From the NCBI GenBank assembly GCA_963555755.3, contig OY820905.2:1-64000 (forward strand): a DNA stretch of 64,000 nucleotides, given 5' to 3'. This document shows, one piece after another, positions 957 through 13,894 of this stretch. Both the position numbers and the translations under genes were made by a program. This DNA comes from Nitrospirales bacterium. Lineage in GTDB: Bacteria > Nitrospirota > Nitrospiria > Nitrospirales > UBA8639. The notes under the pieces were generated by a model, which saw nothing but the letters and a program-made list of their open reading frames with translations, had not been told where the DNA came from and made no database searches. Within the stretch, counting starts at the first letter, position 1. Every line of letters begins with the position of its first letter.

Positions 957-2090
957 AGAGGACTCAGGAGATAAAAACTTACCGGAAAATTATCCTGGAA
1001 AACGCCGTTGGGAGCGAAGAAGAGATGCAAGCTGTTGACAGGCGTAGGAAAATTTTATAACGCGTGCTCACCTCATGGGCGACGTGAGCTGGGGCCCGAT
1101 AAAATACTGATAGCGTACTATATGCATTTCAAAATAGGCATTTGAAAATTTTCCTGGCACACCAATGTTTGGGTGAGCGCTTGGTTGAGCCAAAGCATTT
1201 TCCAGAATCATAGCTCGCCACCATACCTATATCAGCTTGCAAATACAAAGCCTTTAGACCAAGCCCGTCCGTCCAGCCGGTTCAACGTGTCGCGAGGAAC
1301 TGAACTTCTCTAAACAAGCTTCTCTAAACAAAGATTAACTGGAATTACCCGCACCGGGCAATTAGTCTAATAACAATATAGTAATGGATCTATACCTTTG
1401 TTAGGCTTCGCCTTGAACATGCCGGGTTAAGCCCAACACTGAATCCAGGCATTAAATCACCAGTACGGAAACCCATTTCAGCCAAAAGCTGCATCGCATT
1501 ACCGAATGTCATCTCCATACCCCCATAGACAATAGCCAGAAACAAGCCGAAGTAACCCGAAAATTAGCCAAGTCAAAACGTAATCGGGAATAGGAATTTT
1601 AAAAGGCCTTTTTGCCTAAACCGGAAAGTATCAAAGACCCCGTTGCGGGGTCAATTTGCAGACGTTACCGTCTGAAAGGCGGGAGTTCCACGGCGAGATG
1701 GTGCGGCAGGGCCCATTTTTCCAGGATCGGGTCAGCCTGTCGTTCCATTGTGGTGTGGGAGTGGGGGAACTGGGCAAAGGGGGAGTGTCGGCTCCGACAC
1801 TGAACCGGAATCCTGGGGGAGCTTAGGCCGTTTGTAGGAACGGGTCGAGCCGGGCCGGGGCTCGTGGTGGAGCGCGGGTGGGCAAGCCCAGGTGCGCGAG
1901 AATCTTGGCAATCACGGTGGGATCTTCAATGGCGGCGAGGATGGTCAAAGGGCCGCCGCACTGTGGGCAGGTGGTAATGTCGATGGCGAAGACGCGTTTG
2001 AGTAATTGTGCCCAGCTCTTGCGGGCCCGCGTTGAGACCGAGGAGAGCTCGCTGTTTCCATCGGCGAGGTCCGTCGCCGGGTCCGGCCTC
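1..2090. repeat. Left arm of a large inverted duplication (partner ~34550..36638)
   Basis: Position x corresponds to 36639-x; ORF track shows mirrored ORFs with scattered differences. Confidence 0.95.
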
Positions 2091-2140
2091 GCCGGGCACG
2101 ATCTGGGAGCGCAGGGCCGCGTTGGGCGCCAGGACGCCAT
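1586..2140 (-). mobile_element. IS91/ISCR-like element remnant: transposase C-terminus plus oriIS end
   Basis: SWAQLLKRVFAIDITTCPQCGGPLTILAAIEDP..IAKILAHLGLPTRAPPRAPAR; end reads TTTTAAAATTCCTATTCCC on minus strand, like ISCR oriIS. Confidence 0.85.
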
Positions 2141-2998
2141 AGAAACACAGCTGGCGAACGTTCTCCCCATTCTCTTCCGGGTGCCTCCACCTTTGTCCCG
2201 AATCACATGGCTCGGGAACTCGCTCTGCTCAAACAGCCTCGCCAAAGCAGCCAATTCGATACAGAGGCTCCGCCGCGTCTGAAGGCGGGAAGAGAAGTGG
2301 AAAGGAGAACAGGCGGAAGTGCTGAATCGGCGAAACTCTCAACCCAGGATTTGACCGCATGCCGTCATCGGCGGTGTGTCTAGCGGGTTGAAGTCCCGCG
2401 AAAGGAGTTGTTCGTACACCTTTCTAGTACCGGGAAGCAGCGTCTGAGTAATCAGGGGTTGAAGTTTCCCATGGGCAAAGCCGCAGGCCGTAGCGCAAGC
2501 GAACCTAGATGTAGCCTCGTAAACGAATTGGAGATGCCGACCCTGTGGTCAGAAGGGGAAGGCCGCCGTTTGAGGGAGCAGAACGAACACCCACCCTCAG
2601 GATCTTCCGGGGTAGCAGGGATGGCATGTGGCGGAAGAGACACCGTGCAGGACGGGAGACCCGCGACGGTGCTGGCGCAGAACCAGCAACTGAGGCGTAT
2701 AAGGGATACCGAAATCGCTGCGGGCCGTCGTGGGAGTCGGAGGGGTTCATAGTACCGTTGGAGAGCCTGGGACAACACAACCCGGCCCGAGGGAAGGGAC
2801 CCTACTTTGTTCACGTTTCCGACGAGTGGAGGATCAGGGGATTGCCATTGCGCTAACCACCCCGAGCACGATCAGGACACTACAGAGGAAACTATCTCAG
2901 AAGGCCAAGTCTGAATTTGGCTATTGCTTGATGACAGACGCATGCCGCTGGAAGAAGAACATCGGAAAGCCGTGTATGGGAAAACCATACGCACGGAT

Positions 2999-4992
2999 GT
3001 GTGTCCAGGTAAGGCGAGACTGTTCAGTGGGAAGCAAGCCCACCAGGGTAAGAGCCTGAGCCCTGTAGCTTGGATGGCAGCGTGGAGAGAAACCGAGACG
3101 CTGAAGCCCATCGACAAAGCCATCGTAGAGGATGGTGAGCGAGTTCCCGGGCCGTAACGCAAGTGAACGCAGAGGTAGCCTCGAAAGTATGAAACCTCGG
3201 AGGTCGAGTCCCTGTCCGTAGGACGAAGACGGCATGGACAGGCGAACCAAGGCTGAGACGCCTGGCCACTCCGGCGGGGTGAGAGCGACAGCACGGGAGC
3301 AAGGACAGACGACGCAACTGGAGAAGCCCTCCTCGTCCCAGGGAGAAATCCCTGGAGGAAGATCGGCTCTATAACCAGCTCTCTGGGAAGTGAGCCGAAG
3401 ACGAGAGGGTGGCGGAGGGGCTCGTAGGAGCGAGGAAGCAGGGTCATGCCTGTGGAGCAAAGGAGCCCTACTGGCTGTAGGCTGTGATCAACATGGGAGG
3501 CAGGGACGAGATGACAACGGCGTCCATTACACTGCAAGACCTGCGACAGCGGCTCTACGTCAAGGCGAAGGCTGAGAAGCGATGGCGGGTGTGGGGCCTG
3601 TACGTCCACGTGTGCAAAGAGGCGACGCTACGCGCGGCCTATTCGATGGCCAAGAAAAACAACGGAGCCCCCGGCATTGATGGGGTGACGTTTGCTGGCA
3701 TCGAGGCCACGGGGGTGGAGCCCTTTCTTGCACGACTACGGGACGAACTGGTCACGCAGACCTACCGACCGATGCGGAACCGGCACGTGGAGATTTCGAA
3801 AGGCGGTGGACGAGTCCGCGTCTTAGGGATACCCGCGATTCGGGACCGCGTGGTACAGGGAGCGCTCAAGCTCCTGCTGGAACCGATCTTTGAGGCGGAT
3901 TTTCGTGATGGGTCGTATGGGTATCGACCGAAACGGACAGCCCACCAGGCGATTGGCCGGGTGGCTCAGGCGATGGTGCAGAACAAGACGCGAGTGATTG
4001 ATGTGGATCTGGCGGCCTTCTTCGACACGGTGCGGCATGACCGGCTGCTGGCGAAGGTGGCCCGACGCATCCAGGATCCCGCGATCCTGCGGCTGGTGAA
4101 ACTCATCGTCAAGGCGTCCGGCCCGCGTGGGGTGCCTCAAGGGGGTGTGATTTCCCCGCTGCTGGCCAACCTCTATCTCACGGAAGTGGATGAGAGGCTG
4201 GAGCAGCTGAAGGAGACAACCCGGCAGGGCCAGTATACGTATCTCGAGTATGTCCGGTTTGCGGATGACCTCGTCGTGTTAGTGGATGGCTATCGCCGCC
4301 ACGCACAACTGGCGCAGGTTGCGGAGCGGAAGCTGCGAGAGGCGTTGGCCCAATTAGACCTTCAGGTGAATGAGGAGAAGAGCCGAATCGTGGACCTGAG
4401 TCAGGGAGGCAGCTTCGGCTTTCTGGGCTTTGACTTTCGGCGTGTGCGGTCGCGGCGTGGAGTGTGGCGCCCGCAGTACATACCGAAGGTGAAGCGGCGC
4501 ACCGCGTTGCTGCGGAAGCTCAAGGAAGTGTTCCGACGCGGGCAATCCCAGCCGGTGGGACGGATGATCGCCATGATCAATCCGATCGTACGGGGCTGGG
4601 TGAACTACTTCCGGATTGGGCATGCGAGTCGGTGTTTCTCCTACGTGAAGGATTGGGTGGAGCGGAAGGTCCGGCGGCACATGATGCGAGTGCGCCACCG
4701 TCGAGGTTTTGGCTGGAAGAGGTGGAGTAAGGTTTGGCTCTACACGGTACTTGGCTTATATGGAGATTACCGAGTGCGGTACAACGGGTCGGCATGAAAG
4801 TCCTTCCAGGCTGATAGGTCACATAACCCTTGAGGTGAAGCATCCAGGAAAGCCCGGTGCTGGAAATCAGCACGCCGGGTTTGAGGTGGCGGGGACTGGA
4901 ACCGTGACCAGGGGAGTCGGACTGAGGCCCATTCCGAAAGGGGTGGAGGAGCCACCGAACCCTACCGTTGGCGCGCCAGTCCTCGACCCTAC
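2999..4992 (+). mobile_element. Group II intron B (class E-like), inserted at the 3' end of DV of intron A
   Basis: Starts GTGTG at 2999; own DV GAAAGCCCGGTGCTGGAAATCAGCACGCCGGGTT; ends CCCTAC at 4992; host DV/DVI rejoins seamlessly. Confidence 0.9.
3511..4797 (+). CDS. ltrA: Group II intron reverse transcriptase/maturase (no endonuclease domain)
   Basis: [37 protein letters not shown], maturase X domain RGWVNYF. Confidence 0.95.
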   Translation: MTTASITLQDLRQRLYVKAKAEKRWRVWGLYVHVCKEATLRAAYSMAKKNNGAPGIDGVTFAGIEATGVEPFLARLRDELVTQTYRPMRNRHVEISKGGGRVRVLGIPAIRDRVVQGALKLLLEPIFEADFRDGSYGYRPKRTAHQAIGRVAQAMVQNKTRVIDVDLAAFFDTVRHDRLLAKVARRIQDPAILRLVKLIVKASGPRGVPQGGVISPLLANLYLTEVDERLEQLKETTRQGQYTYLEYVRFADDLVVLVDGYRRHAQLAQVAERKLREALAQLDLQVNEEKSRIVDLSQGGSFGFLGFDFRRVRSRRGVWRPQYIPKVKRRTALLRKLKEVFRRGQSQPVGRMIAMINPIVRGWVNYFRIGHASRCFSYVKDWVERKVRRHMMRVRHRRGFGWKRWSKVWLYTVLGLYGDYRVRYNGSA

Positions 4993-6423
4993 TGATGAGG
5001 GGGCGCTGGGAAGTGCTGACTGCTATGGTCCGTGGTAGACGCGTGCGTCGAAGCGTTCGAGAGCAGCTCCATGTATGCACCAGTGCTCTACTCTACCCGT
5101 GACTTAATGCAATTACTCAGGCCTGACCGTTCGCAGTAACAGCAGTATGTCTAGCGGGTTAAAGTCCCGTCCAAGGAATTGTCCGTACACCTTGGTAGTA
5201 TGAGGAAGCGGCGTCGTGGTCACACGGGGTCGTAAGTTTCCACACAGCAAAAGAGCAGGCCGTCACGCAAGTGAACCGATGAGTAGCCTCGTAAACGAAG
5301 TGGAGACGCCGACCCTGTGGTCAGAAGGGGAAGGCCGGTGGAAGGGTGCTGGAATAACGGAAGTGGCATCCCTCGACTCCCGGGGTAGCAAGGACGGCAT
5401 GTTCTGGAAGACGTATCGCCCAGTGCTGGAGACCTGTTTTGGGGGTGGGGAGGCCACCGACCACTGTGTATAAGGCCACGAAATCACAGCGGCCCGGAAC
5501 GGGAGTCGGAGGGGTTCATCGTACCGCGTGAGGCCGAGGGACAACACAACCCCGGTCGAGGGAAGGAACCCTGCTGTGTTCATGCAACCGAAGAGCGGAG
5601 GATCAGGGGATTGCCATGGCGCTAACCACCCCGGAGACGATCAGGACGCTGCAGAGGAAGCTGTATGCCAAGGCCAAGCAAGAACCGGCCTATCGCTTGT
5701 ACGCCCTCTACGACAAGATCAGCCAGGAGGATATCCTCAATCATGCCTGGCGGCTTGTCCGAGCCAATCGAGGCAGCCCCGGTAGTGATGGGATCAGCTT
5801 CGAGGCCATAGAGAGTGGAATCGGGGTAGACACGTTTCTGCGGGAATTGCCCCGTGATCTGCAAGCCAAGACCTACCGAGCCCAACCGGTGCGACGCGTC
5901 ATGAGACTTAAAGCGGACGGCAGTTTCCGTCCGTTGGGGATCCCGACGATCCGAGACCGGGTGACGCAAATGGCCGTGAAACTCATCATCGAGCCGATCT
6001 TTGAAGCCGACTTCTGTACGAATTCGTACGGATTCCGGCCCAAGCGATCGGCCCATGATGCGGTGGACGACATTGCCAAGACGCTCTGGGCCGGCTACAC
6101 CCCAGTCATCGACGCCGACCTGTCGAACTACTTCGACAGTATCCCGCAGGCCAAACTGCTGGCCGTGGTCGCGGAGCGCATTGTGGATGGGGGCATCCTG
6201 CGCCTCATCAAGCAATGGCTCAAAGCCCCGGTGAGCGGCGACGACGCGAACGGCACCCGGAAGAGCGTAGGCGGCGGCAAAGCCAACCGCACGGGGACCC
6301 CGCAAGGTGGGGTGATCTCCCCGCTGCTGGCTAACTGCTCCTTGCACCTTCTGGATCGGACATGGCAACGGCGGCACCTCAAAGACAAACTGCAAGCGCA
6401 TCTCGTGCGCTACGCAGACGACT

Positions 6424-8292
6424 GTGCGCCACGAAGGCGCACAAAAGGACGTCAGTCCTTTGTGCAGCCATGCTGCACAAGAGATGAGGGGAGGCCCCTC
6501 GAAGTCGCTGTACAGGCGGAGGCTTCAAACCACCCATGGCTGCTGCCTTTAAGAGAGGTGGTGGTGAGCGCAATGGGAAAAGGCAGGGCAAGACCCTGTC
6601 AGGTATGGACCGTCGAGTCGAACGTGAGTGAACCGCTGAGGACGTGTCGAAAGCGTAGGGATGACGTCAAAACCGGGGGGGGATCGTTACTCCGGGAGGA
6701 ATCTGGCGGGCACCTGGTTACTGGCCAGATGGCGTCCGGCATGAAGGCGGCGAGAAGGCGGTCCAGGCTCTTGTGGAGAACGTGGGAACCTGTCACCCCG
6801 ATGCGAAGGGAGAAACGCAAGTGGAGGTCCCACAAGCGTGAGAGTACCGAGGCGGGGTACAGGGGCGGAGCAACTCGTAGTAGTGAAGAAGGTTCTGTAA
6901 TGGAGCTGGAGCGAAGGGGTTGCCTTATCGGGCTTGAGGGAAGAGAGCAACCAGCGATGGGAGGACTTTCGTGACTCAGGCCAAGCCATTTCCCATTACC
7001 CAACGTCAGGTGTGGGAAGCCTACAAACGAGTGAAAGCCAATCAGGGTGGGGCTGGGGTGGATGGCCAGACGGTGGCGGACTTTGAGCAGAGGTTGGACA
7101 ACAACCTCTATAAGCTCTGGAACCGGATGGCCTCTGGGAGTTATCGGCCCCTGCCGGTCAAGCGGGTGGAGATTCCCAAGGCAGGCGGCGGCAGCCGTCC
7201 GTTGGGGATCCCGACCGTGGCAGACCGGATTGCGCAAACAGTGGTCAAACAGGCCCTGGAACCGGAAGTGGAAGCCCACTTTCACCCGGATTCCTATGGC
7301 TACCGACCGGGGAAATCAGCGCATCAAGCGATTGGGCAGGCGCGCAGGCGGTGTTGGCGCTATGACTGGGTGGTGGACCTTGACATCAAAGGGTTCTTCG
7401 ACACCATCGACCATGACCGGCTGCTGGCCATGGTGCGTCGGCATACCCAAGCTACGTGGGTGCTGCTCTATATCGAGCGATGGTTGAAAGCTCCGGAGCA
7501 AGTGTTGGACGGGACGGTGCGGGAGCGGACCCGAGGCACGCCGCAAGGGGGTGTCGTCAGTCCGTTGCTGGCGAACCTGTTTCTGCATTATGTCTTCGAT
7601 GCGTGGATGAGGCGGTACTATCCGCACATCCCGTTTGAGCGGTATGCCGACGATGGGGTGTGTCACTGTCGCACCCGGAAACAGGCCGAACATCTGAAAG
7701 GGGCGTTAGCGCGGCGCTTTGCGGATTGGGGGCTTGAACTCCATTCGGAGAAGACCCAGATTGTATACTGCAAAGATGCCGATCGGCGTCTGGGGTATCC
7801 AATCACCGCCTTCGACTTCTTGGGCTACACGTTTCGCCCACGGCGGTCGAAGAACCGGTGGGGGAAATACTTCATCAACTTCAGTCCGGCCATCAGTAAT
7901 AAGGCGGGGAAGGCGATCCGCCAGGTCGTGCGGAGCTGGCAGCTCCATCTGCGGAGCGATAAAGCGCTCGACGATCTGGCGCGGATGTTCAATGCGAAGA
8001 TACGCGGGTGGGTGACCTATTACAGTGCCTTCTACCAATCGGCGTTGTACCGGTCCCTCCGGCACATCGATCGCAAACTTGTGCTGTGGGCCACTCGCAA
8101 GTTCAAGCGGCTGCGAGGCCACAAACGGCGAGCCGATCAGTGGTTGCGACGCATTGCGTGTCGGCAGCCCAATCTGTTTGCTCACTGGCGGTTGGTGTAT
8201 GGACAGGCTAGATAAGAAGAGCCGGATGAGCGGAGACGTTCACGTCCGGTTCTGTGAGCGCCTCGAGGGGTGGTTCCTCGGGGCGACTCGAC
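6424..8292 (+). mobile_element. Group II intron D (bacterial class D, RmInt1-like) inserted at the YADD motif of intron C RT
   Basis: GTGCG start at 6424; DV GAGCCGGATGAGCGGAGACGTTCACGTCCGGTTC; ends ACTCGAC at 8292. Confidence 0.92.
6971..8215 (+). CDS. ltrA: Group II intron RT/maturase, class D type, intact
   Basis: [55 protein letters not shown]. Confidence 0.95.
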
Positions 8293-8363
8293 TCGTCGTG
8301 ATGTGTCGAAAAGATGTAGAGGAACCGCTAAAGGTCGTGCGCCACGTACTGGACCAACTGGGC

Positions 8364-9693
8364 GGGCCTGTAAGATAAACTGTGTAACTGGTATCATGAC
8401 GGATCCATTGAATAAGGAGGACTGATGACCAGAGCCAAGACCCCAAGCAAAACCGATGTGCTGTTAGATGAGCTATTGGAAGGGTGTGCGTCACCCGAAG
8501 ACATATTCGGCACACATGGGCTGGTGAAGCGTCTCACGAAACGGCTCGTAGAACGCGCCCTGCGGGCAGAACTGACCGAGCATTTGGGCTATGCCCCTCA
8601 TGCCCCTGAGGGCCGTGGATCCGGCAATGCCCGCAATGGGAGCACGTCGAAAACGGTGCAAACGGCCCACGGGGATCTCCCGCTCCAGGTGCCCCGTGAT
8701 CGTCAAGGCCGCTTTGAGCCGCTGTTGGTGCCCAAACGCCAACGGCGCTTGGAAGGGTTTGATGAGAAGGTCCTGGCGTTGTATGCCCGAGGGCTGACGA
8801 CTCGCGACATTCAAGGGCATCTGGAAGAACTCTATGACGTGGAGGTGTCGCCCACGCTCATTTCGGCCATCACTGATGCGGTGTTGGAGGATGTGCGCAT
8901 CTGGCAGAGTCGGCCCTTAGATGCTGTGTATCCGATTCTGTACTTCGATTGTCTGTTTGTGAAGTCTCGGCAGGAGGGCGTCGTTAAGAATAAAGCCGTG
9001 TATGTGGCCTTAGGGGTGAATCTACAGGGCGAGAAAGAACTCCTGGGGCTCTGGATCAGTGAGACCGAAGGGGCCAAGTTCTGGCTGTCGATCTTCACCG
9101 AACTCCAGCAGCGCGGGGTCCGGGATTGTTTTGTGGCTTGCGTCGATGGGCTGGGGGGCTTGCCAGAAGCCTTGGAGACGGTGTTCCCACACACCCAGGT
9201 GCAACTGTGCATTGTGCATAAGGTACGGCAATCCTTGCGGTATGTGGTGTGGAAAGAGCGACGAGCCGTGGCGCGGGATCTGCGAGCCCTCTATGGCGCC
9301 GCGACGTTGTCGGAGGCGGAAAGCGCGTTGGAGACATTTGCCGCCAGGTGGGATGCGAAATATCCGACGATCAGTGCGACGTGGCGACGGCATTGGAGTC
9401 GGCTCACGATCTTTTTTGATTATCCCCCAGAAATCAGGAAAGCCATCTATACCACCAATGCGATCGAATCGGTGAATTTTTCGTTACGCAAAGTCCTGAA
9501 AAGTCGGGGAGCCTTTCCGACAGATGAATCAATTCTGAAGGTGCTGTATTTAGGGATGCAGCGGATTGCGAAGAAATGGACGATGCCCATTCCGCACTGG
9601 AAGCGGGCTCTCAACCAATTCGCCATGCTCTTAGGAGATCGAGTGCCAACAATCTAGCCCACAATTCAGTTACACAGTTAACTTGACAAGCCC
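8364..9693 (+). mobile_element. IS256-family element
   Basis: Imperfect 26-bp TIRs GGGCCTGTAAGATAAACTGTGTAACT / AGTTACACAGTTAACTTGACAAGCCC; no target duplication. Confidence 0.9.
8425..9657 (+). CDS. IS256 family transposase
   Basis: VPRDRQGRFEP, WQSRPLDAVYPILYFD, QLCIVH, IYTTNAIES. Confidence 0.95.
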   Translation: MTRAKTPSKTDVLLDELLEGCASPEDIFGTHGLVKRLTKRLVERALRAELTEHLGYAPHAPEGRGSGNARNGSTSKTVQTAHGDLPLQVPRDRQGRFEPLLVPKRQRRLEGFDEKVLALYARGLTTRDIQGHLEELYDVEVSPTLISAITDAVLEDVRIWQSRPLDAVYPILYFDCLFVKSRQEGVVKNKAVYVALGVNLQGEKELLGLWISETEGAKFWLSIFTELQQRGVRDCFVACVDGLGGLPEALETVFPHTQVQLCIVHKVRQSLRYVVWKERRAVARDLRALYGAATLSEAESALETFAARWDAKYPTISATWRRHWSRLTIFFDYPPEIRKAIYTTNAIESVNFSLRKVLKSRGAFPTDESILKVLYLGMQRIAKKWTMPIPHWKRALNQFAMLLGDRVPTI

Positions 9694-11267
9694 CCATTAA
9701 CACTGCAAGACCTGCGACAGCGGCTCTACGTCAAGGCGAAGGCTGAGAAGCGATGGCGGGTGTGGGGCCTATACGTCCACGTGTGCAAAGAGGCGACGCT
9801 CCGCGCGGCCTATGCGATGGCGAAGAAGAACAACGGGGCCCCCGGCATTGATGGGGTGACGTTTGTTGCCATCGAGGCCACGGGGGTGGAGCCCTTTCTT
9901 GCACGACTACGGGACGAACTGGTCACGCAGACCTACCGACCGATGCGGAACCGGCCCGTGGAGATTTCGAAAGGCGGTGGGCGAGTCCGCGTCTTAGGGA
10001 TACCCGCGATTCGGGACCGCGTGGTACAGGGAGCGCTCAAGCTCCTGCTGGAACCGATCTTTGAGGCGGATTTTCGTGATGGGTCGTATGGGTATCGACC
10101 GAAACGGACAGCCCACCAGGCGATTGGCCGGGTGGCTCAGGCGATGGTGCAGAACAAGACGCGAGTGATTGATGTGGATCTGGCGGCCTTCTTCGACACG
10201 GTGCGGCATGACCGGCTGCTGGCGAAGGTGGCCCGACGCATCCAGGATCCCGCGATCCTGCGGCTGGTGAAACTCATCGTCAAGGCGTCCGGCCCGCGTG
10301 GGGTGCCTCAAGGGGGCGTGATCTCTCCGCTGCTGGCCAACCTCTATCTCACGGAAGTGGATGAGATGCTGGAGCAGCTGAAGGAGACAACCCGGCAGGG
10401 CCAGTATACGTATCTCGAGTATGCCCGGTTTGCGGATGATCTCGTCGTGTTAGTGGATGGCTATCGCCGCCACGCCCGACTGGCGCAGGTCGCGGAGCGG
10501 AAGCTGCGGGAGGCGTTGGCCCAATTAGACCTTCAGGTGAATGAGGCGAAGAGCCGGATCGTGGACCTGAGTCAGGGAGGGAGCTTCGGGTTCTTGGGCT
10601 TTGACTTCCGGCGTGTGCGGTCGCGGCGTGGGGTGTGGCGCCCGCAGTACATACCGAAGGTGAAGCGGCGCACCGCGTTGCTGCGGAAGCTCAAGGCAGT
10701 GTTCCGACGCGGACAATCCCAGCCGGTGGGACGGATGATCGCGATGATCAATCCGATCGTACGGGGCTGGGTGAACGACTTTCGGATTGGGCATGCGAGT
10801 CGGTGTTTATCCTACGTGAAGGATTGGGTGGAGCGGAAGGTCCGGCGGCACATGATGCGAGTGCGCCACCGTCGAGGTTTTGGCTGGAAGAGGTGGAGTA
10901 AGGTTTGGCTCTACACGGTACTCGGCTTATATGGAGATTACCGAGTGCGGTACAACGGGTCGGCATGAAAGTCCTTCCAGGCTGAGAGGTCACATAACCC
11001 TTGAGGTGAAGCATCCAGGAAAGCCCGGTGCTGGAAATCAGCACGCCGGGTTTGAGGTGGCGGGGACTGGAACCGTGACCAGGGGAGTCGGATTGAGGCC
11101 CACTCTGAAAGGGGTGGAGGAGCCACCGACCCCTACCGTTGGCGCGCCAGTCCTCGACCCTACTGATGAGGGGGCGCTGGGAAGTGCTGACTGCTATGGT
11201 CCGTGGTAGACGCGTGCGTCGAAGCGTTCGAGAGTAGCTCCAGGTGAGCACCAGTGCTCTACTCTAC
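9694..11267 (+). mobile_element. Second, 5'-truncated copy of intron B (to 11163) followed by host DVI (to 11267)
   Basis: Near-identical to 3523..5096; RT ORF 9760..10968 lacks its start. Confidence 0.9.
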
Positions 11268-12050: not shown

Positions 12051-13894
12051 CGGATCTTCCCCCCATGTTTTCACCCTAAGCTGTTGGAATCCTTTAGGAA
12101 AAAGGTAGATTGCTCGCTATAATGTAGGCATGTAATTATTGAATTTGCATTGCTATAATGCGAAATATATGCTACATATAAAGCATGTATATCGCCAGCG
12201 TCCCCAACCGCACGTCCCCGCCCGCCATTTTGTTGCGTGAAAGCTACCGGGAGGATGGCAAGGTCAAGACCCGGACCCTGGCCAATCTCACCTCATGGCC
12301 CCCGGTCCGTGTGGACGCGCTCAAGCGCTGCCTCTGCGGGGATTTCGATGGAACGGGAGACGATGAGGCCCCAGTCAGCGATCGGATCTTTGGCGTGCTC
12401 TTCGCCCTCAAAGCGCTGGCCCAGCGAGTCGGGATTGTCTCGGCCTTGGGGCAGAAGGCTGTCGCAACGCTCGCGCTATTTCTCGTGCTGGCACGGGTCG
12501 CCCACCAGGGCTCGCGGCTGTCGGCGGTGCGGTGGGCGGCCGACCATGCGGTGGCTGAAGTCCTGGGCCTGCCCGCCTTTGACGAGGATGACCTGTACGA
12601 GGCCTTAGACTGGTTGGCACCCAACAAGCAGCCATCGAGAAGAAACTGTATCGGGCCTCTGTCCAGCGGACCGGCCAGCCCCCGGTCTTGGTGCTCTATG
12701 ACGTGACCTCCTCCTATTTTGAGGGGGACAAGAATGAACTGGCCGCCTATGGGGATAACCGGGACGGCAAGAAACACAAGAAGCAGATTGTCATTGGCTT
12801 GCTGACAGGGCCGGATGGTGAGCCGCTGGCCGTCACGGTGTTCAAGGGGAATACGGCGGATCCCCGCACGGTCGCCGAGCAGATTGAACGGATCAAGACC
12901 CAGTTCAAGATCACCGACGTCGTGTGTGGGGGGGATCGGGGGATGGTGAAAGCCGCAGGCAAGGCGGCCCTCACCGAGCAGGGACTCAAGTACCTCACCG
13001 CCCTCACTGACCCGCAGATTCGCACCTTGCTGAAGAAAGATGTGCTCCAACTCAATTTGTTTGATGAGACGATACAGGAAGTGGAGGAAGGCGCTCGTCG
13101 GCTGATTCTGCGGCGGAACGAGGCGTTGCGCCACACGGTGGCCACGCGACGGCAGGACAAGGTGGCCACGCTGCAGCAGAAAGTCGCGGCGCGCAATGCG
13201 TTTGTCCAGACGGCCACGCGGGCCACCCCGGCGGCGGGACAGCGGCAGCTGACCCAGTGGGCCAAGAAGCACAAGCTCTCCACCTTCATCACGCTCGCCC
13301 TTCAGGATACTCAGCTCATAATCGAGATCGATGAGGCCAAGCAGGCCGATGCGGCCCTGTTGGATGGCTGCTCGGTGCTGGAGACGGATGTCGCCCGGGA
13401 GACGATGGAGCCCTCGACGGTGGATGCCCGGTACCGGGATCTGCAACGGGTGGAACGCGACTTCCGGACAATGAAGACGGGCTTGCTCGAACTGCGCCCC
13501 ATCTTTGTGCGGAAGGAGTGCCGCACCCGTGGTCATGTCTTCGCCTCGATGCTCGCCCTGAAAGTGGCACGGGAAGGCGAGCGAGGCCTGAAGGAGGCGT
13601 TTGGGACGACGGAGCAGAGTGCCCAGGCACTCACGCTCGATGATGCTCTGGCGGCCCTGTCACGGTTGTGTTTCCAACGCCAGGAGATCGGCGGGCAAGA
13701 GGTGCTGCAACTGGCTCGACCCGATGCCCGACAGGCGGCCATCTTTACCGCATTGGGGATCACCCCTCCCACCACCACACGGCCAGCCAAGGGGCACATG
13801 TAGGCAGAAGCGCGGCCACGCCAAGACCGTGACTTCTTCAATGACATCAAGAGGTTAGAGCCAAAAACTCGCCTAAAACTCGGGGGAAGATCCG
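12051..13894 (+). mobile_element. IS1634-family element with 5-bp TSD TCAGG
   Basis: TIRs CGGATCTTCCCCC / GGGGGAAGATCCG; TCAGG at 12046-12050 and 13895-13899. Confidence 0.9.
12185..13803 (+). pseudogene. IS1634 transposase, frameshifted near 12620
   Basis: LLRESYREDGKVKTRTLANLT (12185..12706) continues in another frame as LYDVTSSYFEG..NRDGK..DRGM..VERDFRTMK. Confidence 0.85.

Follow-up and report, generated by a model that had tools for sequence, protein, structure and literature searches.

We analyzed a 64,000-nucleotide (nt) stretch of DNA, hereafter the window, from a Nitrospirales bacterium (GenBank assembly GCA_963555755.3, contig OY820905.2, positions 1 to 64,000 of the forward strand), where a group II intron, intron B, lies within another, host intron A. 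An intact member of class F (g2), B interrupts the catalytic hairpin of its host, domain V (DV), at the last base pair. It was likely placed there by ordinary retrohoming, i.e., by pairing of its exon-binding sequences (EBS1, EBS2 and EBS3) with the linear 3' strand of DV, a reading to which we assign a probability of about 0.85. The DV 3' strand is the most conserved sequence common to group II introns. Positions below are those of the window, and those prefixed C1 are genome positions.

B occupies 1994 nt of the forward strand, from 2999 (GTGTG) to 4992 (CCCTAC). The 3' strand of the host DV reads GCACGGAT up to 2998, and the host restarts as TGATGAGGGG at 4993. The insertion point is thus the last base pair of the DV hairpin, and the last DV base, together with the whole of domain VI (DVI), is cut off from the remainder of A. 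A sequence-only reading of the window had already placed B at the host DV's 3' base, with junctions at 2998, 2999 and 4992, and the sequence confirms all of these. The boundaries have independent support, in that DNA contigs from sequencing runs X1 and X3 start exactly at 2999 and the X3 contig terminates at 4992; homologues of B support them as well. In run X15 a joint from 2998 to 4993 is present, best read as an empty allele, and a DV from the same host family without an insertion, identical in sequence to two filled DVs, was found at C1:228423. With a complete B nested in A at precise boundaries, the arrangement is a twintron.

B has the GUGYG and AY ends of a group II intron (here GTGTG...AC), a DV catalytic triad, a DVI with a bulged A and, in domain IV (DIV), a reverse transcriptase (RT)/maturase; Rfam model D1D4-4 matches at 3025-3162. 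The RT open reading frame (ORF; 3511-4797, forward strand, 428 amino acids) is intact and scores 358 bits against TIGR04416, above the cut-off. Pfam finds RVT_1 and GIIM only, i.e., no endonuclease domain, and the active site carries a FADD motif (YVRFADD). B.th.I3 of plasmid pBMB67 and Ni.ha.I1 represent varieties g2 and g3 of class F, with FADD given for g2 (PMC3552965). The B protein is 49% identical to the former and 37% to the latter; the g2 assignment rests on comparison with one g2 and one full g3 reference. B.th.I3 of pBMB67 also joins the base of the B clade (97* branch) in a quick RT tree, in which long branches meet near the root and the deep nodes are unsure. The ribozyme is laid out as in IIF introns: EBS1, EBS2 and EBS3 all have their pairings, a terminal DId stem-loop carries alpha-prime (as in IIE and IIF introns; PMC3753933), the DV loop is five nt and DVI is long. 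Folding places B's own DV at 4850-4882, with a lower stem unlike the canonical target; EBS1 pairs with this own DV at only 3/7 positions. DVI and the 3' splice site follow at 4883-4992 on the same strand, with the bulged A near 4986 (fold of 4843-4992, z = -3.0).

The exon-binding loops were mapped by covariation, scoring every column of domain I (DI) for Watson-Crick complementarity against every exon position in 113 introns. The scan returned one antiparallel run of columns for exon positions -1 to -7, one for -9 to -13 and a single column for +1. EBS1 (GTCCGTA, 3214-3220, forward strand) pairs with exon positions -1 to -6 of the host, with one G-T pair; the Watson-Crick fractions for its seven columns were 0.96, 0.88, 0.90, 0.88, 0.87, 0.76 and 0.77, against 0.28-0.40 expected. 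EBS2 (GTATG, 3187-3191, forward strand) makes five out of five pairs with -9 to -13, with fractions of 0.47-0.88 against 0.27-0.36 expected; at -10, -11 and -12 these were 0.88, 0.84 and 0.71 (expected 0.36, 0.36 and 0.31). EBS3 is the A at 3282 (forward strand), which pairs with T4993, the first base of the 3' exon (0.80 versus 0.53 expected, n = 70). Two further pairings covary, i.e., delta (3213) with delta-prime (3177), and the stem that closes the EBS1 loop (3208-3211 with 3221-3224). The intron-binding sequences both lie in the 3' strand of the host DV, IBS1 at 2993-2998 (-6 to -1) and IBS2 at 2986-2990 (-13 to -9), and the pairing between B and host A amounts to 12 pairs (6 + 5 + 1 for EBS1, EBS2 and EBS3), not the 3-4 nt that the sequence-only reading had allowed EBS1. 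That reading had taken AACC at 3245-3248 for the EBS1 loop. The letters are there, but the loop (3245-3258, forward strand) carries alpha-prime (3250-3254), and covaries with alpha (3053-3057) at 3250-3057, 3252-3055 and 3253-3054. Against exon positions -1 to -4 in the DV-inserted set, its AACC columns gave observed/expected fractions of 0.58/0.54, 0.60/0.62, 0.07/0.07 and 0.13/0.20, which is chance level, and we rejected it as EBS1. Folding of DI as a single sequence missed the true EBS1 loop.

The loops are tuned to the individual targets. For the 45 DV-inserted introns with an EBS1, this sequence made on average 5.98/7 pairs with its own target (permuted mean 4.64, maximum 5.13), and EBS2 made 3.18/4 (permuted mean 2.02, maximum 2.51). 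Both values lie above all 10,000 permutations of the targets, although these introns are related, so that the permutation values overstate the significance. EBS1 also shifts with the variant of the host DV, e.g., where DV ends in GGAA, CAGTT or GCGTT. Two EBS1 alleles occur in the present genome, and the base at 3215 matches exon position -2 at 10/12 junctions. In the window the G of the host triad (2968-2970) lies opposite A2997 rather than the usual U; the same GGAT variant recurs in the hosts of L036, L054, L058, L084 and L095, where the EBS1 of the invader matches it.

DV is the usual landing site of B within this genome. We found 13 full copies (97.5-100% identity) and three partial ones; the full copies represent 11 sites, one of them a triple tandem (C1:2160017-2165998), and 10 of the 11 are at the same position of a DV. 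The DV hosts are ORF-deleted A introns (7/7 copies), full-length A introns (2/3) and one intron of an unrelated class. The 5' DNA of B had no real match in the 40 related genomes searched (the only hits being two scraps of 27-34 nt), which fits a recent arrival and a burst.

The habit extends well beyond this genome. Homologues were taken from the best 80 genome loci and the best 79 metagenome loci, each of about 600 matches; 116 loci including the window had a clean 5' boundary and 30 nt or more of exon (113 once deduplicated), and the others were cut by contig ends or rearranged. The sequence-only reading had proposed looking for enrichment of DV in the 5' exons of homologues, and the enrichment is there: 46 of the 113 distinct junctions lie at the same DV position (42 by rule, four by eye), whereas the rule fires at 347/48,000 random positions (0.7%). 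Its errors were one false positive (L170) and the four missed sites added by eye. All 46 targets differ in sequence, and the 28 with a named organism span at least eight phyla. From G002, an Alphaproteobacteria metagenome-assembled genome with 66 matches to the B RT, we fetched 51 regions (L196-L246) with 47 junctions, of which 40 lay in the DV of hosts from a family whose triad is AAC and seven were tandem. G001 and G003 gave DV junctions in 4/4 and 5/5 cases, and in G004 2/15 junctions were non-DV. Insertion into DV is a real and widespread habit of the relatives of B.

The remaining 67 of the 113 junctions are not in DV, and the same EBS pairing explains them, with a mean of 5.6/6 EBS1 pairs. 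Diverse sites accounted for by full EBS pairing were what the sequence-only reading had named as evidence against its own proposal of hairpin targeting, and this is largely what we observed. Among the non-DV sites, one group of 21 (L029, L038, L043, L113, L116, L126, L135, L148 and others) shares a TTTT..A|C motif, which we take to resemble the terminal repeats of insertion sequences (IS), and targeting of this motif arose at least twice on the RT tree. A group of seven (L025, L031, L103, L107, L111 and others) shares GATT..AAGT|C, at least five sites lie a short way into the 5' end of another intron, and the others are diverse. One subclade with EBS1 CTTCATG (L015, L016, L022, L094, L101 and L138) inserts into another type of group II intron, about 26 nt in from its 5' end (GTGCGCC...) and behind a small hairpin; this is a second intron-in-intron site in the B family.

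Several observations bear on whether it is the hairpin or the sequence of DV that is found. G005 has six copies with a single DV-type EBS set, one in a DV and five at unrelated non-DV sites having only the linear word in common. Altogether there were 11 non-DV insertions by DV-programmed introns (five of them from one genome, and one, L100, possibly a degenerate DV), with DNA folding energies of -0.1 to -5.2 kcal/mol, compared with a median of -8.6 for DV targets. The 67 non-DV sites fold like shuffled sequence (-2.4 versus -2.2). In the present genome the three strongest DV hairpins (-10.9, -10.6 and -10.3) are empty, and the occupied ones range from -3.8 to -8.0. Taken as natural experiments, these cases indicate that insertion does not need the hairpin.

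A second linear element of the target probably lies further upstream, where the letters of the DV loop fall. The motif G-R-R-A at -19 to -16 was found at 12/12 occupied junctions in this genome, including that of the non-DV copy, whose EBS2 pairing is poor. GNRA at these positions occurred in 41/46 DV targets and in 5/11 of the hairpin-less sites, where the background is 0.04 (p ~4e-5, for a signal that was chosen after looking). It is therefore likely that a linear GNRA at -19 to -16 adds specificity, probably being read by the RT as linear DNA; the RTs of other introns do read the distal 5' exon (PMC8643678). The covariation scan gave no convincing Watson-Crick RNA partner for exon positions -16 to -19 (best excess 0.18). 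Nor did we find a distal motif common to the whole clade, GNRA at -19 being present in 2/30 unclustered non-DV sites and 0/21 of the IS-end-like sites.

According to the retrohoming reading, the excised particle of intron RNA and RT would reverse-splice into the DNA strand encoding DV, probably at replication forks because the RT lacks an endonuclease. The hairpin would have to open rather than be recognized, because EBS1 and EBS2 both pair with strands that it would occupy; indeed, the stem's 3' strand is the partner of both, and the hairpin would compete with the intron. The 5' exon would survive insertion, so that a second copy could land at the same site again, giving tandem arrays. B-type introns arrayed head to tail at a single DV site were observed at C1:2160017-2165998, in G002 (seven junctions) and at L120.

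Besides the relatedness of the introns and the post hoc choice of the GNRA signal, a few results weigh against pairing as a sufficient account. Two copies in this genome are mismatched at -2, and the sole non-DV copy pairs poorly with both EBS2 and EBS3. Moreover, a loose filter on EBS1, EBS2 and EBS3 passes 42 non-DV sites in the genome, all of which are empty, whereas 11 of the 16 DV sites that pass are filled. Five Watson-Crick EBS2 pairs are seen at none of the 42, and the distal G-R-R-A motif at -19 to -16 at a single one; because these loose matches stay empty, a further determinant is needed, and the hairpin may contribute to efficiency. This occupancy contrast speaks for a mixed model, in which pairing sets the position and a transient DV hairpin or cruciform raises efficiency, e.g., by offering the RT or an RNA receptor the GNRA loop before the stem opens. 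The frequency of GNRA in DV targets and hairpin-less sites agrees with it, as does the small hairpin behind which the subclade aimed at the 5' ends of other introns lands. However, occupancy did not follow hairpin strength, at hairpin-less sites GNRA is found as plain sequence, and two copies are at DVs whose 5' arm is displaced by 1.9-2.6 kb by an IS (which may predate or postdate B). We consider the mixed model unlikely.

A pure hairpin mechanism, as proposed in the sequence-only reading, is more unlikely still. Here a B with an EBS1 of only 3-4 nt would find DV as a hairpin in single-stranded DNA, in the way that class IIC introns use terminator or attC hairpins. The DV immediately upstream of the site does form a stable hairpin, and it is the target at nearly all sites in this genome and at most G002 junctions. 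However, the columns at 3245-3248 do not covary with the exon, an EBS1 of 6-7 nt and an EBS2 exist and do covary, and both pair with the hairpin's own 3' strand. Sites lacking an upstream stem-loop are used, and the strongest DV hairpins are empty. In addition, IIC introns lack EBS2 (PMC3753933), and the B RT belongs to class F, not class C. Least credible of all is that ORF-deleted host and B spread as one DNA/RNA unit, the DV position being one old insertion that was copied: although all seven ORF-deleted hosts carry B, near-identical B copies (0-3 differences) are present in hosts 6-7% apart, in full-length hosts and also in a host of an unrelated class, the DV targets differ in sequence and span phyla, and empty alleles exist.

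Host intron A begins at 2357 on the forward strand. Its 5' part (2357-2998; Rfam D1D4-6 at 2390-2622) comprises DI to DIV and all of DV but the last base, and is of class F and g3-like; full-length host RTs are 47-49% identical to Ni.ha.I1. Compared with full-length copies, about 1.25 kb of the RT ORF is deleted near 2930-2950. The host DV (2967-2998, forward strand) has the catalytic triad AGC at 2968-2970 and an RNA fold of -13.3 kcal/mol (z = -4.35). The 3' part (4993-5096, forward strand) holds the last DV base, DVI with the bulged A at 5090, and the 3' end, as judged from folding and from the 3' ends of 12 host-family copies, in which the next base is C in all 12 listed and the next two are CC in 11/12. 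The 5' end at 2357 lies immediately after the target word TGACC and 17 nt upstream of a GTGTG at 2374. The latter was tried as the 5' end and replaced by 2357, the start that is conserved in 11 A-type copies; in the genome, the 11 A-type and five C-type 5' ends share sequence reaching back to the TGACC word. EBS1 of the host (GGTCAGA, 2547-2553) is complementary to this word. The 5' ends of the host family are atypical (GCATG, GTTCG) and lie 16-17 nt upstream of an internal GTRTG.

Insertion of B has consequences for the host. With B inserted, most of the host DV can still fold (at the energy given above), but DVI and the 3' splice site have been moved 2 kb away. Judged from this arrangement, and in line with the sequence-only reading, an invaded host is likely to be unable to splice or move until B has been spliced out, and inner-first splicing is likely because B moves DVI and the 3' splice site away from DI-DV. 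B itself would have to open the host DV in order to splice, and new host copies arising after its excision would be re-invaded. In RNA runs X4 and X8 contigs bridge both junctions unspliced and no spliced joint was found; contigs drop rare forms.

The clade of B has also lost the target word from its own DV. The word CGG at -5 to -3 is present in 39/46 DV targets and in the own DV of 4/4 basal relatives, but in only 3/61 derived introns, which have compensated DV stems in its place. Across 28 DV-type introns, EBS1 made 3.1 pairs with the own DV and 5.9 with the real target. The stem of the clade's own DV would have been rewired with compensating changes such that EBS1 mismatches it, and the loss of the target word suggests self-avoidance. 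Against this, the three derived introns that keep the canonical DV word include one, L140, that is itself inserted in a DV and has 5/7 self-pairs. On the RT tree (104 rows, after four were dropped because their RT was shared with a nested copy or mistranslated), DV targeting requires 14 changes, compared with 34 for shuffled labels. Introns with this target are present in every main branch of the derived clade, while nested subclades use other targets, and this distribution suggests that DV targeting is ancestral. A broader history, for which we would give slightly less than even odds, is that this branch of class F (g2) is a self-immune parasite of other introns: in an ancestor EBS1 and EBS2 became aimed at the catalytic DV strand that all intron classes have in common, the RT learned the loop letters and the own DV was rewired, after which subclades were retargeted to IS ends and intron 5' ends. 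By bringing rival introns in each genome that it enters under its own control of splicing, such a parasite might act as a natural brake on the spread of introns.

Several known systems resemble B in part. Class F g2 introns (B.th.I3 of pBMB67, M.xa.I1, Sg.ce.I1 and W.e.I5; PMC3552965) share an endonuclease-less RT/maturase, FADD and a length of about 2.0 kb, and the IIF ribozyme layout (PMC3753933) shares EBS1, EBS2 and alpha-prime in a terminal loop; however, the available parts of these two papers describe no preference for DV targets, and B.th.I3 of pBMB67 sits in a transposase gene and has kept a canonical-type DV. The YADD-homing introns M.a.I5, UA.I3, P.l.I2 and an intron of B. thuringiensis israelensis (PMC2504315, where the last is named B.th.I3 but differs from that of pBMB67) are likewise endonuclease-less, programmed by EBS1 and EBS2 to a conserved active-site sequence of a retroelement, and found as twintrons and nested arrays. 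Their target is the active-site codons of the RT, leaving the host ribozyme intact, whereas that of B is the catalytic DV, which is split from DVI and is present in ORF-less hosts too. B thus works like that lineage without being a member of it. TeI3-in-TeI4 of Thermosynechococcus elongatus (PMC2882425) also has near-identical inner introns in diverged outer ones, with EBS retargeting and proliferation by way of an intron as landing pad, but its inner introns are ORF-less and use a DIV site of one related family, without the self-avoidance problem or the cross-class host range. Intron-in-intron homing is known from Methanosarcina arrays as well (PMC4424553). Class IIC introns (PMC12584367, PMC3753933) insert directly behind a hairpin-forming sequence using an endonuclease-less RT, but they have a short EBS1, lack EBS2 and insert 3' of the stem, whereas B pairs EBS1 and EBS2 with the 3' strand of the stem and also uses hairpin-less sites. 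In EcKTE56.groEL (PMC12584367), as with B, second copies enter at a preserved 5' junction to give head-to-tail arrays. However, the partner of the resident intron's first G is there a U at EBS3, whereas EBS3 of B is A (G in G002), and tandem insertion of B would therefore tolerate an EBS3 mismatch.

A full-text literature search, whose scope did not extend to Michel 2007, Simon 2008 or Dai and Zimmerly 2003, all of which may mention it, found no description of homing into DV. DV thus appears to be an undescribed landing site, with a mechanism, likely standard retrohoming, that is itself familiar and less surprising than the hairpin idea. Almost no group II intron can do without DV, a sequence unique in this respect, and it therefore offers a landing pad in almost any intron-bearing genome, with no host gene harmed. 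The family provides a natural, multi-phylum test set for co-evolution of EBS loops, RT and ribozyme core, together with apparent self/non-self discrimination via compensatory changes in a catalytic helix. Because the target sequences of B lie buried in the host DV stem, it is also a clean system for ordered twintron splicing. Finally, DV-split twintrons hide their outer introns from DV-based annotation, a known source of false negatives (PMC8919778).

A second copy of B in the window (9697-11163, forward strand; 97% identity, Rfam Intron_gpII at 11019-11136) is truncated at its 5' end by an IS256 (8363-9694) that replaces its 5' part, and is followed by the end of a host-family DV and DVI (11164-11267, forward strand). 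The sequence-only reading had noted that the 3' junction of B recurs at 11163, which is correct. A near-identical IS256 is present at C1:1249252-1250583, and each of the pair adjoins a truncated B, the 3' part here and the 5' part at 1.25 Mb; the differing breakpoints suggest IS-associated deletions. We also considered whether the copy ending at 11163 and the 5' fragment at C1:1251094 are reciprocal halves, and rejected this because the IS256 junctions differ. In several sequencing runs another element matches just the last 41 nt of B (4952-4992), implying a second related intron in the samples.

DV is also entered by an element of a different kind. An IS-like element of about 1.86 kb, with terminal inverted repeats, a short target duplication and a 596-amino-acid protein weakly matching an IS1 transposase (E = 2e-07), is present in four copies (C1:775533-777391, 1024326-1026938, 1251116-1252974 and 3058591-3060449; L247-L250). 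Each of the four interrupts the upper stem of a group II intron's DV, always at one and the same position; the hosts are of at least two types, and two B copies lie just downstream of the element. None of eight relatives checked elsewhere was in a DV. The element is a second, unrelated DV parasite at least locally.

The start of the window is a pile-up of mobile elements. Upstream of the host intron is a fragment of an ISCR/IS91-like transposase (1823-2254, reverse strand), and downstream is a frameshifted IS1634 transposase (12185-13803, forward strand). The A and C host types (16 5' ends) use a dispersed TGACC|CC target, represented in the window by 2352-2356, 5097-5098 and 5124-5128, and intron C begins at 5129, 32 nt past the end of A. 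Intron D (6424-8292, Rfam D1D4-2), of which the genome has three identical copies, lies directly after the YADD codons of the intron C RT gene, an instance of the known YADD-homing habit.

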